Positions 47,179 through 50,083 of a stretch of 64,000 nucleotides of DNA are shown here, one piece after another. The DNA is from an uncultured delta proteobacterium. GTDB taxonomy: Bacteria > Myxococcota > Myxococcia > Myxococcales > Myxococcaceae. The translations under genes were made by a program, and so were the position numbers. How positions within the stretch are numbered: the first letter of the stretch is position 1; each line of letters starts with the position of its first letter. The stretch spans positions 96,001 to 160,000 of the forward strand of contig CAWCKH010000004.1 of the NCBI GenBank assembly GCA_963796055.1, written 5' to 3'. The notes under the pieces are model-generated. The model was given only the letters and a program-made list of their open reading frames with translations, had not been told where the DNA came from and searched no databases.

Positions 47179-48396
47179 ATGGGCTACCTCGTACTGGCGC
47201 GGAAGTGGCGCCCCCAGACCTTCGACGACATGACCGGCCAGGAGCACGTGGTCCGCACGGTGGCCAATGCCATCAAGCTGGACCGGGTCGCCCACGCCTA
47301 CCTCTTCTGCGGCCCCCGCGGCGTCGGCAAGACCACCGCCGCCCGCCTCCTCGCCAAGGCCCTCAACTGCGTGAACGGCCCCACCGCCACCCCCTGCGGC
47401 GTCTGCCAGCCCTGCGTGGAGATCGCCGCCGGCACCTCGGTGGACGTCGCCGAGATCGACGGCGCCTCCAACAACGGCGTGGAGAACGTCCGGGAGATCC
47501 GCGAGAACGCCAAGTACCTGCCCCAGCGCGACCGGCACAAGATCTACATCATCGACGAGGTGCACATGCTCTCGGGAGCGGCGTTCAACGCGCTGCTCAA
47601 GACGCTCGAGGAGCCGCCGGGACACGTGAAGTTCATCTTCGCCACCACCGAGCCCCACAAGCTCCCGGACACCATCCTCTCCCGCTGCCAGCGCCACGAC
47701 TTCCGGCGCATCCCGGCCGAGCGGATGCTCGCCCGCGTGAAGCAGATCGCCACCGAGGAGAAGGCCGGCCTGTCCGACGCCTCGCTCGCCCTCATCGTCC
47801 GCCAGGCCGAGGGTGGGATGCGCGACGCCCTCTCCCTCCTCGACCAGGTGATGTCCGCCTGCGGGCCGGGCGCCAGCGACGCCGCCGTGGCCGAGGCCCT
47901 CGGGGCCATCGACCGCACCGTGGTCCAGCAGATGGCCGCCGCGCTCGTCCGCCGCGACGCGAAGGCCCTCCTCGATTCGGTCGAGGACCTCTTTCAGCGT
48001 GGAGCCGACCTGCGCCGGCTGGCCGAGGAGCTCGCGCTCGAGCTCCGCCACGTGCTCGTCACCCGCGCCACCGGCAAGCCCCCCGCCGAGCTGGCCGAGG
48101 TGGAGCAGAAGATGGTCGTCGAGCTCGCCCGCGAGGCCGACCCGGCACAGCTCGCGCGCCTGTTCGACGTGGTGCACGGTTCGGTCTGGGACGTCGGCCG
48201 CGCCGCGCAGCCCCGGCTCGCGCTGGAGATGGCTCTCCTCAAGGCCATCCAGCTCGCCCCCACCGCCTCCATCCCCGAGCTGCTCACCCGGGTGGAGAAG
48301 CTCCTCGGCACAGGCGCCGCGCCCGATGCGCGTGCGGCCGCCCGGCCCGGCGGGACGCCTGGAGGTCGTCCCGCTCCCCAGCCCTTTCGCGGCTGA
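47179..48396 (+). CDS. dnaX: DNA polymerase III gamma/tau, zero-frame part (gamma-sized, 405 aa)
   Basis: YLVLARKWRPQTF, GPRGVGKTT, Zn module, EIDGASN, IIDEVHML, NALLKTLEEPP, SRC, GGMRDALSLLDQ. Confidence 0.97.
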   Translation: MGYLVLARKWRPQTFDDMTGQEHVVRTVANAIKLDRVAHAYLFCGPRGVGKTTAARLLAKALNCVNGPTATPCGVCQPCVEIAAGTSVDVAEIDGASNNGVENVREIRENAKYLPQRDRHKIYIIDEVHMLSGAAFNALLKTLEEPPGHVKFIFATTEPHKLPDTILSRCQRHDFRRIPAERMLARVKQIATEEKAGLSDASLALIVRQAEGGMRDALSLLDQVMSACGPGASDAAVAEALGAIDRTVVQQMAAALVRRDAKALLDSVEDLFQRGADLRRLAEELALELRHVLVTRATGKPPAELAEVEQKMVVELAREADPAQLARLFDVVHGSVWDVGRAAQPRLALEMALLKAIQLAPTASIPELLTRVEKLLGTGAAPDARAAARPGGTPGGRPAPQPFRG

Positions 48397-49153
48397 GCCG
48401 GCTGCCGCGCGCGCCGCACCCGTCTCGGCCCCCCGCGCGAACGCCGTCCGGTCCTCGCCCGCCGTCGACCCTTCCCCGAAGCCCGCTTCCACCCCGGCAC
48501 CATCTCGCCCTGCCCCCGCCGCCACGCCGTCGACCGACGCCGCCCGACCCGGCTCGAAGACCAGCGCATCCGAGACCCGCGCGCCGACACCGAGACCGGC
48601 CGATGCCCCGCTGGTGGTCGACACCAGCCCTGGTGGCTGTGCCGCGGGTGAATGCCTGCCGGAGCCTGCTGCGCCGGCCCGCGGACGGGACGATCCGTCG
48701 CGCTCGCTCCTCGACCGCTGGCGCACCGCGCTCGACACCGTGGCCGCGGAGTCGCCCCGGCACTCGGCCTCGCTGAAGCAGGCCCGGCTCCTCTACCTCC
48801 GCGAGGGCGAGGTCGGAGTCGCCTACCGCGGCGACGCCAGCTTCCATCGCACCACCGTCAGCGGGCAGAGCGGGCGGCCGGTGGTGGAGCGCCTGCTCTC
48901 GGTCCACTTCGGACGGCCCACCCGCCTGGTGGTGGACGAGACCGCGGGGGCGGCCGCGGGTGGAAAGAGCATCGCGGAGCTGGACGCCGACGCCCGCGCC
49001 GAGCACGAGCGCGCCACCGGACAGTCCGTCCGCAACCACCCCGCCATCCTCGCCACCCTCCGCGTCCTCGGCGGCGAGCTGGAGCACATCCAGGTCCTCG
49101 AGCACGAGCGCACCGGCGCCCCCGGCAGCGACGTCATCGACGAGCAGCCCTGA
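48389..49153 (+). CDS. dnaX: Tau-specific C-terminal extension of DnaX in the +1 frame (Pro/Ala linker plus C-terminal domain)
   Basis: No ATG/RBS of its own; P/A linker, then RWRTALD.V...SASLKQARL and VRNHPAI...LRVLGGEL; fills the gap between dnaX and ybaB. Confidence 0.75.
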   Translation, partial: AAEPAAARAAPVSAPRANAVRSSPAVDPSPKPASTPAPSRPAPAATPSTDAARPGSKTSASETRAPTPRPADAPLVVDTSPGGCAAGECLPEPAAPARGRDDPSRSLLDRWRTALDTVAAESPRHSASLKQARLLYLREGEVGVAYRGDASFHRTTVSGQSGRPVVERLLSVHFGRPTRLVVDETAGAAAGGKSIAELDADARAEHERATGQSVRNHPAILATLRVLGGELEHIQVLEHERTGAPGSDVIDEQP

Positions 49154-49172: not shown

Positions 49173-49493
49173 ATGCCCGGAGTCGATCTCAACTACTTCA
49201 TGCGCCAGGCCAGCAAGCTGACCGAGAAGCTCGAGCAGCGGAAGAAGGAGCTGGCCGAGGAGACGGTCGAGGGCCAGGCCGGCGACGGTCGGGTCAAGGT
49301 CGTCGCCACCGGCGCGGGGGACGTCCGCTCGATCAAGATTGCCCCGGAGGTCCTCACCGCCGGCGACGTGGCGATGATGGAGGACCTCATCGCCGCCGCG
49401 GTCAACGCCGCCCTCACCCAGGCTCGCGAGCTCAGCGAGCGCGAGCTGGGGAAGATCTCCGGCGGTCTGAAGATTCCCGGAATCACCGGATGA
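49173..49493 (+). CDS. ybaB: YbaB/EbfC nucleoid-associated protein
   Basis: VEGQAGDG.VKV...G......I.I, MMEDLIAAAVN.A; dnaX-ybaB-recR synteny. Confidence 0.93.
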   Translation: MPGVDLNYFMRQASKLTEKLEQRKKELAEETVEGQAGDGRVKVVATGAGDVRSIKIAPEVLTAGDVAMMEDLIAAAVNAALTQARELSERELGKISGGLKIPGITG

Positions 49494-50083
49494 CGCCGGA
49501 CCCCCTCAACCGCCTCGTCGCCCAGCTGTCGAAGCTCCCCGGCATCGGGGAGAAGACTGCCCAGCGGCTGGCCTTCCACATCTTGCGAGCACCGCCCGAG
49601 TACGCCGCCGAGCTGGTCGCCGCGCTGCAGGAAGTGAAGAGCAAGGTCCGGCTCTGCAGCCGATGCTTCGCGCTCACCGAGGGACAGCTGTGCGGCTTCT
49701 GCACCGACCCGCGCCGTGACGACCGGCTCCTGTGCGTGGTGGAGGGCATCGCCGACTTGATGGCCCTGGAGAAGACGCGGGAGTTCAAGGGGCGCTACCA
49801 CGTGCTCCACGGCGTGCTGTCGCCGCTGGAGGGCGTGGGCCCGGAGCAGCTGCGGATCCAGGAGCTGCTCGTCCGCCTCGAGGACGGCAAGGTGGAGGAG
49901 GTCATCGTCGCCACCAACCCGGACGTCGAGGGCGAGGCGACGGCGCTCTACTTGATGAGGCTGCTCAAGCCGATGGGCATCCGGATCACCCGGCTTGCCC
50001 AGGGGCTCCCAATGGGCGGCGACCTCGAGTTCGCGGACCAGGCCACCTTGGCCCGCGCACTCTCCGGGCGCAGGGAGCTGTAG
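49490..50083 (+). CDS. recR: Recombination mediator RecR
   Basis: LPGIGEKTAQRLAFH, C4 zinc finger, YHVLHG.LSP, ATNPDVEGEATA, G.DLEFAD. Confidence 0.97.
   Translation: MTPDPLNRLVAQLSKLPGIGEKTAQRLAFHILRAPPEYAAELVAALQEVKSKVRLCSRCFALTEGQLCGFCTDPRRDDRLLCVVEGIADLMALEKTREFKGRYHVLHGVLSPLEGVGPEQLRIQELLVRLEDGKVEEVIVATNPDVEGEATALYLMRLLKPMGIRITRLAQGLPMGGDLEFADQATLARALSGRREL

Follow-up and report, generated by a model that had tools for sequence, protein, structure and literature searches.

The stretch of DNA analysed here, referred to as the window, comprises 64,000 nucleotides (nt) from an uncultured member of the Myxococcaceae (GenBank assembly GCA_963796055.1, contig CAWCKH010000004.1), and the gene of concern is dnaX, which encodes the clamp-loader subunits gamma and tau, lies on the forward strand and is divided between two reading frames. 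All coordinates are positions within the window (Table 1). The zero frame opens at the ATG at 47179 and yields a product in which the Pfam families DNA_pol3_delta2, DNAX_ATPase_lid and DNA_pol3_gamma3 all score above cut-off, with the AAA+ clamp-loader domains I-III inside its first ~370 amino acids (aa), which marks it as DnaX. The remainder of the protein continues in the +1 frame, which is free of stops from 47852 up to its own stop at 49151-49153 and holds no methionine codon beyond 48386. Third-position GC content reaches 0.90-1.00 in the zero frame until ~48360 and in the +1 frame from 48720 on. TTT occurs at only two places in the gene, at 47992 and at the junction (48385), where a slip from UUU to UUC predicts a tau of 657 aa. 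An initial annotation, made from the sequence by itself, had proposed that tau depends on recoding at this rare codon, and reading of the open reading frames (ORFs) bears out its 405-aa zero frame, its +1 continuation to 49153 without an ATG and its ~657-aa product.

Table 1. Features of the dnaX locus and of the genes that follow it, in window coordinates
Feature	Position	Strand	Size or basis
dnaX zero-frame ORF, gamma-like clamp-loader subunit (AAA+, lid, domain III)	47179..48396	+	405 aa
Hairpin 5' arm, -33 to -28 from TTT	48352..48357	+	alignment, fold
Hairpin 9-nt loop	48358..48366	+	fold of window sequence
Internal Shine-Dalgarno (SD) GGAGGT in loop, 18 nt before TTT	48361..48366	+	alignment, 16S 3' end
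Hairpin 3' arm, -18 to -13 from TTT	48367..48372	+	alignment
12-nt spacer, fixed length, variable sequence, last base C in 97/98	48373..48384	+	gap-free alignment of 99
Predicted shift site: UUU in P site, UUC as +1 codon, CGC in zero-frame A site	48385..48390	+	TTTC invariant
+1-frame tail, Pro/Ala-rich linker and tau C-terminal domain	48386..49153	+	255 aa
Gamma stop codon TGA	48394..48396	+	ORF reading
Two-cysteine linker motif GCxxGECLPE in +1 frame	48635..48664	+	C..G.C in 73/81 tails
Tau C-terminal (domain V-like) fold, only copy in genome	48716..49105	+	Pfam, predicted structure, hmmsearch
ybaB/ebfC, next gene downstream of dnaX	49173..49493	+	Pfam YbaB_DNA_bd
recR	49490..50083	+	Pfam RecR domains

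The conservation of the split was assessed with orthologs chosen by protein similarity and not by motif, comprising 102 genomes of the window's family, its own included, picked to span genera and to include genomes missed by a strict motif search. Ninety-nine could be counted, since two had no gene end in view and one (G004), which carries the cassette with a 13-nt spacer, was left out for extra indels. Exactly one in-frame TTTC lies between residue 375 and the stop in 99/99 genomes, and the tail domain lies in the +1 frame in all 88 genomes with both halves in view. Across these 88, the distance from TTT to the domain takes 76 different values between 31 and 1279 nt, is always 1 mod 3 and is always stop-free in the +1 frame; the other two frames are open across the linker in 29/88 each. 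The alignment that the initial annotation had suggested as a check has therefore returned, within the family, the conserved TTT_C, the nearby stop and the +1 continuation that it looked for. Named records with the cassette come from Myxococcus, Corallococcus, Pyxidicoccus, Cystobacter, Hyalangium and Archangium and include M. xanthus AM003, and the 90% cluster of the window's protein has members labelled Myxococcaceae. Among 53 named dnaX loci, 45 are +1, 7 have no tail in view and one (L234) has a further downstream indel. A record titled Comamonas sp. KCTC 72670 (L243 / L369) holds a Myxococcus-type dnaX with the full cassette and is probably a mislabelled myxobacterium.

Several lines of comparison address what the +1 frame encodes. 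Across 108 aligned tail domains, Pfam DnaX_C is matched in 33 and DUF3646 in 16 (E <= 0.01); the window's own tail domain scores 18.5 bits, under the Pfam curated cut-off. Its predicted structure (pLDDT 87.7) has as top Foldseek match 5fku_E, a 120-aa chain of the E. coli Pol III complex (E 0.017, TM 0.60/0.71, rmsd 2.1), and the tau C-terminal domain 2aya ranks sixth. No Foldseek match reached E <= 0.001; in a PDB sequence search, DnaA N-terminal domains came first, and the E value of a tau chain was no better than 0.77. A tail-domain profile searched against the six-frame translated genome with hmmsearch found the dnaX locus alone (E 3e-50), the next match standing at 0.22. Judged by these profiles and by the modelled fold, the +1 tail is the tau C-terminal domain and the sole source of it in the genome. 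Tau is essential in E. coli. It binds the polymerase and the helicase, which gamma does not (PMC4756838, PMC11470591). Because databases list the 405-aa product of this group as 'gamma/tau', the real tau is probably missing from its proteomes. The two-cysteine motif, set within an otherwise free linker and kept in single-ORF relatives too, is a possible metal, redox or partner-binding site.

At the predicted shift site, the family shows the arrangement typical of UUU_C(G) +1 sites, namely a P-site UUU followed by C and usually by a CGN codon: besides the invariant TTTC, CGN is found in 97/98 genomes, the A-site codon being CGC in 90, CGT in 5, and CGA, CGG and CTG in one each. The source genome has one tRNA-Phe gene, with anticodon GAA. 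TTT accounts for 4.3% of Phe codons in 2697 ORFs of that genome, in agreement with the rarity noted in the initial annotation, and GGA-GGT, the codon pair that forms the SD, for 114 of 9570 Gly-Gly pairs in the same ORFs; the presence of both at the dnaX junction exceeds chance. The base preceding TTT is C in all genomes but one, compared with 645/1115 ahead of in-frame TTTC in the source genome, a conservation beyond expectation that is suggestive only, the genomes being kin and not independent. The stop follows TTT after 3 codons in 80, 4 in 13 and 5-9 in 6 of the 99 genomes, and because this distance varies, the gamma stop is not an A-site signal. The signal first proposed, CCC_UUU_CGC_GGC_UGA, was thus drawn too wide: the CCC and GGC codons are unconserved, the core is C_UUU_CG and the stop falls outside it.

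Upstream of this core, the SD sits inside the loop of a 6-base-pair hairpin (48352-48372) whose stem ends exactly 12 nt ahead of TTT. The GGAGGT had already been pointed out at this spacing, and GGN-GGT proves to be kept there in 99/99 genomes; the hairpin around it was absent from the initial annotation. Among 98 genomes the SD reads GGAGGT in 87, GGGGGT in 10 and GGTGGT in one, and GGAGGT is fully complementary to the 16S 3' end of the source genome. The first two loop bases are able to pair with the last Gs of the SD (pair column 13:20, compatible in 97/99). The 99 junctions align without gaps, and the arms at -33 to -28 and at -18 to -13 are paired in 99.6% of cells, three pairs showing two-sided changes. 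This level of pairing was reached by 0/500 shuffles and compares with 37-55% in slid controls, and the same stem was recovered by RNAalifold. Since relatedness can inflate such counts, covariation was retested on a tree of 95 of the 99 genomes, where the pair -31:-15 shows 8 independent contrasts, compensatory in 7.2 on average and opposite in 0 (median p 0.016). It ranks first, and -30:-16 second, of 353 variable column pairs. With some of the compensations the encoded residue changes as well (Ala to Thr or Val, Ser to Pro, Arg to His), which indicates selection on the RNA. Folding is favourable upstream of the site (median z -2.0), and the family alignment revealed no conserved 3' structure (downstream folding, median z +0.64); an Rfam search gave no match at the shift site. 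When 80 named pattern-matching loci were inspected, the stem was present in 53/53 dnaX loci and in 0/27 non-dnaX matches. Two loose stem/SD/TTT matches elsewhere in the source genome (G000:C2:133889 and G000:C4:1323879) are probably due to chance in GC-rich DNA.

The same element recurs in a sister family, of which 13 genomes with 14 loci were sampled. Eight of these loci are +1, and seven of the eight carry GGAGGG at 18 nt with a 9-base-pair stem in another register, 98.4% paired and with 3 two-sided pairs. In both families' registers the 3' end of the stem is fixed, at -13 or -12, and the SD stands at 18 nt. Taken on its conservation and covariation, the dnaX junction is a real, deeply conserved recoding signal.

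The reading preferred here is that one dnaX mRNA would give rise to both clamp-loader subunits through programmed +1 ribosomal frameshifting. Ribosomes staying in frame would meet the stop a few codons past UUU and release gamma (~400 aa); in a fraction of them, the peptidyl-tRNA-Phe on UUU would re-pair on the overlapping UUC, so that the ribosome reads the tail and completes tau. The stimulator would be the hairpin/SD element on the 5' side, not a 3' structure. Taken as a whole, with unshifted ribosomes making gamma, shifted ones making tau and the 5' element stimulating the slip, this account is probable. The presence of the same tail within a single ORF in a sister clade lends it support. 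A +1 ribosomal slip as such is very probable, and a functional role of the hairpin in it, all things considered, is likely.

How the hairpin might act is a more tentative matter. When the P site is occupied by UUU, the 3' end of the stem at -13 lies, by footprint geometry, at about the point where the mRNA exits the ribosome. In both registers, closing of the hairpin ties up the final Gs of the SD, so the hairpin and the anti-SD would compete, and it is from this competition and from the position of the stem end that a hand-over is proposed. The ribosome would open the hairpin, and the anti-SD of its 16S rRNA would catch the exposed SD and hold it for a few codons; once UUU occupies the P site, the 3' arm would be just clear of the ribosome and the hairpin would snap shut, reclaiming the last Gs of the SD and tugging the mRNA out by one base. 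This sequence of grip and pull we place slightly below an even chance. An mRNA/anti-SD pseudoknot, in which stem and SD duplex stand together, was ranked lower, because in either register the closed hairpin engages the final Gs of the SD in its own pairing.

Published work supplies partial precedents. A tRNA-Phe slip from UUU to UUC has been shown for influenza PA-X (PMC3498833) and reported for bacterial FseA, at 4-13% (PMC4755241), and synthetic upstream hairpins have been reported to raise +1 shifting in yeast (PMC3639245) and in 70S translation (PMC6321510). A replicase that needs tau would probably require more shifting than the known sites at 1% or 4-13%, which would explain a dedicated stimulator.

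A number of observations weigh against this reading. Known internal SDs stand 3 nt away in +1 shifting and 9-14 nt away in -1 shifting, and their duplex reportedly comes apart once translation has moved on by 5-7 nt (PMC5009743); at 18 nt, the dnaX SD matches neither spacing and is therefore unlikely to work in the known manner. The -1 attenuation by synthetic upstream hairpins was reported to be about halved when the spacing grew from 2 to 5 nt (PMC3639245), and the dnaX hairpin is 12 nt away; the +1 effect in 70S translation was described only without RF2, at a stop-codon site (PMC6321510); and UUU_CGU alone is reported to give about 1% (PMC3498833). The A-site CGC is common, at 40% of Arg codons in the source genome, and because the stop is also outside the A site, no classical pause is evident. 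The pair -30:-16 offers no more than 3 independent contrasts (p 0.25), the hairpin of the window taken alone has a modest z-score of -2.3 to -2.5, and a peptide effect of the near-invariant Gly-Gly-Arg may be at work as well. Furthermore, four natural proteins (P0001, P0002, P0004 and P0018) are single-ORF taus of 647-696 aa without the cassette peptide. The three of them placed on the tree form a sister clade of the window's genus (support 99), and for this reason the +1 signal is judged to have been lost there by re-fusion; it is dispensable in at least one clade. These four proteins are known without their DNA, which neither a metagenome scan nor a genus search found, and the one close locus (L391) has the +1 cassette.

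The competitor that survives best retains the +1 slip and denies the hairpin a part in it: the stimulator would be the SD:anti-SD duplex alone or the nascent Gly-Gly-Arg, and the hairpin would only hide the SD from initiating ribosomes or space trailing ribosomes. The fixed GG-x-GG-x at 18 nt in both families, despite the differing stem register, speaks for it, as do the near invariance of Gly(-8), Gly(-7) and Arg(-6) within the family, the peptide effect suggested for the FseA site (PMC5009743) and the greater distance of the hairpin compared with the synthetic hairpins that worked. Yet the 3' end of the stem is no less fixed than the SD, the rare GGA and GGT are kept where the peptide would permit any Gly codon, and the reported early breaking of the SD duplex (PMC5009743) weighs against this explanation too. 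We consider it unlikely. A protein partner has also been considered: CsrA and RsmA bind GGA hairpins, and a CsrA-type factor acting on the dnaX hairpin was rejected because the source genome (98.5% complete) has no match to PF02599.

Slippage of RNA polymerase is very unlikely to be the source of tau. Here a nascent hairpin would trigger the loss of one base and the shortened mRNA would be translated into tau. Thermus dnaX does use transcriptional slippage, and hairpin-dependent removal of one base is described for Roseiflexus IS630 (PMC5009743). The IS630 stem adjoins a T5C5 run, however, whereas dnaX has a 12-nt mixed spacer and three Ts only, preceded by variable sequence unable to re-pair after a shift. 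Both the codon phase of the cassette and the SD are, moreover, kept in 99/99 genomes. In three studies (X7, X12 and X16), the majority contigs of RNA runs, ~97% identical to the M. xanthus AM003 locus, span the cassette without an indel, although such contigs drop minor variants, reveal neither strand nor level and may derive in part from DNA present in the libraries; a fourth run (X18) covers the cassette with contigs that break 2 nt beyond the stop and was given no weight.

Still less probable is that the tail forms a separate small protein, begun at an internal start by translational coupling that the SD would serve. A strong SD near the stop, a GTG at 48614 in the +1 frame, which the initial annotation had itself raised as a possible independent start, and tail-only gene calls in databases (P0003 and P0019) all lend it some appeal. 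No +1-frame start codon lies 5-10 nt after the SD, however; between TTT and the C-terminal domain there is no ATG in 54/88 genomes and no ATG, GTG or TTG in 9/88; and from TTT onward the variable linker stays in frame and open along its full length. A -2 slip would reach the same frame as a +1 slip, and long SD spacings normally favour backward slips; nonetheless, this route, or a +1 slip at another codon, is a faint prospect, given that TTTC alone is invariant while the codons ahead of the stop vary, and that the two bases before TTTC are variable too (A/C/G at -2) and offer tRNA-Phe no match for re-pairing. Finally, an assembly error, a worry of the initial annotation for which stray dnaX indels in some related assemblies (G004, L234 and G236) give some ground, or a decaying pseudogene can be set aside as negligible, as the same site recurs in 99 genomes, among them named isolates with complete chromosomes, the split holds in 88/88, the RNA contigs of a close relative are free of indels, and the tail domain is conserved and the only copy.

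Beyond the +1 loci, the sister family contains five genomes with tau in the -1 frame, and one further locus is cut off. Three of the five (L332, L333 and L334, from G193, G185 and G189) have C_CCU_UUU, preceded at 8 nt by an AGG and followed at 7 nt by a GC-rich hairpin that shows covariation; by its sequence elements, this is a classical -1 cassette that occupies the position of the +1 site. The other two (L325 and L329, from G177 and G039) carry C_CCU_UUC, with UUC in the zero frame and the 5' hairpin/SD one base closer, and show no clear 3' stimulator. Their shift site is uncertain, and they are possibly intermediate between the +1 and -1 layouts. Trees were quick trees and FastTree; in the quick tree, each family forms one clade (98) and the five -1 genomes fall inside the sister family, a grouping that is weakly supported (81). 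The simplest history would be a single origin of the +1 form, followed by a switch to -1.

Farther afield, 34 loci were collected from seven other families of the order, 4 of them cut off; in all 30 with the stop in view, the zero frame extends to at least 500 aa, and the cassette is present in none of these 30. One genome among these families (G236) has probable assembly indels in dnaX. Outside the order, 61/65 matches lie in open frames of at least 500 aa, and four genomes (G315, G286, G322 and G326) have dnaX frames below 500 aa, which may be due to contig ends or to further split genes. The initial annotation had reasoned that continuous orthologs would speak against recoding: these do occur, but only in other families and in one small derived clade.

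The surroundings of dnaX contribute several observations. Upstream, four tRNA-Ser genes, a tRNA-Arg(ACG), a tadA-like deaminase ORF recognised by motifs seen by eye, and the SRP RNA lie between 44094 and 45232, a synteny of tRNA, tadA and SRP RNA beside dnaX that we take to be old. TadA and tRNA-Arg(ACG) are the makers of the decoder for the A-site CGC, and their adjacency to dnaX is probably coincidental. Between 45671 and 47122, on the reverse strand, an ORF for a 483-aa membrane protein, mannosyltransferase-like by eye, is divergent from dnaX, the two starts lying ~56 nt apart. Elsewhere in the source genome, an array of nine tRNA genes, as in mobile elements, occupies G000:C4:3118970-3121462; a tRNA-Sec is found on C3 and a candidate tRNA-Arg(GCG) at C4:3496587.

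If the proposed reading holds, myxobacteria would depend on a hairpin switch to make the tau of their replicase, and, within one clade, the same CCCUUUC site would have been re-wired from +1 to -1 and then returned to a single ORF. Continuous, +1, -1 and re-fused forms would make up an evolutionary series at one site. A route to gamma and tau would be added beside -1 shifting, transcriptional slippage and proteolysis. The locus would also provide a natural test, supported by covariation, of whether 5' mRNA structure drives +1 shifting, in the genetically tractable M. xanthus, which carries the cassette. At less than even confidence, the hairpin may represent a bacterial +1 stimulator of a new class: a switch formed by an SD-in-loop hairpin at the ribosome's trailing edge, gripped first by the anti-SD and then refolding to ratchet the mRNA forward, which would be efficient on a plentiful sense codon without the help of a stop or a hungry codon.

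Among known systems, two-ORF dnaX genes come closest in organisation. Antonov et al. (2013) described 17 such genes, all -1, 12 of them at poly-A runs, with transcriptional slippage suggested (PMC3711429), and a 2016 review repeats the type and names Chlorobium (PMC5009743). In these genes, as in the window, gamma ends the zero frame and tau needs recoding, so that of the initial annotation's recoding proposal the conserved +1 split stands, the slip of tRNA-Phe from UUU to UUC would still account for it, and the 'inverted logic' claimed for it was already in print. The published genes shift by -1, mostly at 7-10 As, whereas the window's family is +1 in 88/88 genomes, at UUU_C, with no homopolymer and with a 5' hairpin. 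Three loci met along the way (L044, L073 and L468, two of them labelled Opitutaceae), whose dnaX ends at ~390 aa right after 9-10 As, belong to the known -1/poly-A type. The name Myxococcus is absent from the main text of PMC3711429 and from two of its supplements; a third supplement may bear on novelty, and the available part of bioRxiv 2025.10.02.679949 does not mention myxobacteria. In a literature search that lay mostly outside subscription journals, no report was found of a +1 dnaX, of dnaX frameshifting in myxobacteria or of a naturally occurring 5' stimulator with the SD in its loop. The +1 form of dnaX and the layout of the SD-in-loop 5' stimulator thus appear to be new, two-ORF dnaX and UUU_C +1 sites being known.

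E. coli dnaX also makes two clamp-loader subunits from one mRNA with an internal SD upstream. It does so by a -1 slip at A_AAA_AAG, aided by the SD and a 3' stem-loop, whereas the window shows the opposite direction and wiring, with a 5' hairpin holding the SD; a conserved heptamer, a 3' fold and a matching Rfam family are lacking at the myxobacterial site. The -1 loci G193, G185 and G189 of the sister family have an E. coli-like layout, but for tau. With prfB, which encodes RF2, the window shares a +1 P-site slip accompanied by an internal SD; in prfB the SD stands at 3 nt and not 18, and UGA fills the A site where dnaX has a sense codon, its stop lying 3-9 codons on, so release-factor sensing would play no part at the dnaX site. 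Amalgaviruses reportedly carry UUU_CGN +1 sites of the same kind as PA-X. The influenza PA-X site shares the core C_UUU_CG, the preference for CGN in the A site and a terminal C in the E-site codon, and differs in its eukaryotic ribosomes, its ~1% efficiency and the lack of an evident stimulator in the report consulted (PMC3498833).

The nearest bacterial relative in mechanism is FseA, encoded by msi172-msi171 of a Mesorhizobium integrative and conjugative element (ICE), where a +1 tRNA-Phe slip is reported on UUU_C with a conserved G-rich stretch upstream, and where, as in dnaX, one-ORF and two-ORF variants both occur (PMC4755241). FseA is a regulator of a mobile element that is kept low, its conserved element lies ~4 codons upstream, and the available text mentions no hairpin (PMC4755241); dnaX, by contrast, belongs to the core replication genes and has its covarying stem 12 nt ahead of the site. 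For the hairpin itself, the closest parallels are the refolding upstream hairpins (PMC3639245, PMC6321510) and the 5' structure of gene 60 bypassing (PMC5009743), in which a 5' stem re-forming behind the ribosome favours forward movement. The 2016 review grants 5' structure only a 'perhaps' as a stimulator of +1 shifting (PMC5009743). The engineered hairpins place their stem next to the E site (PMC3639245, PMC6321510), and dnaX would be a natural, conserved case of such a stem at 12 nt.

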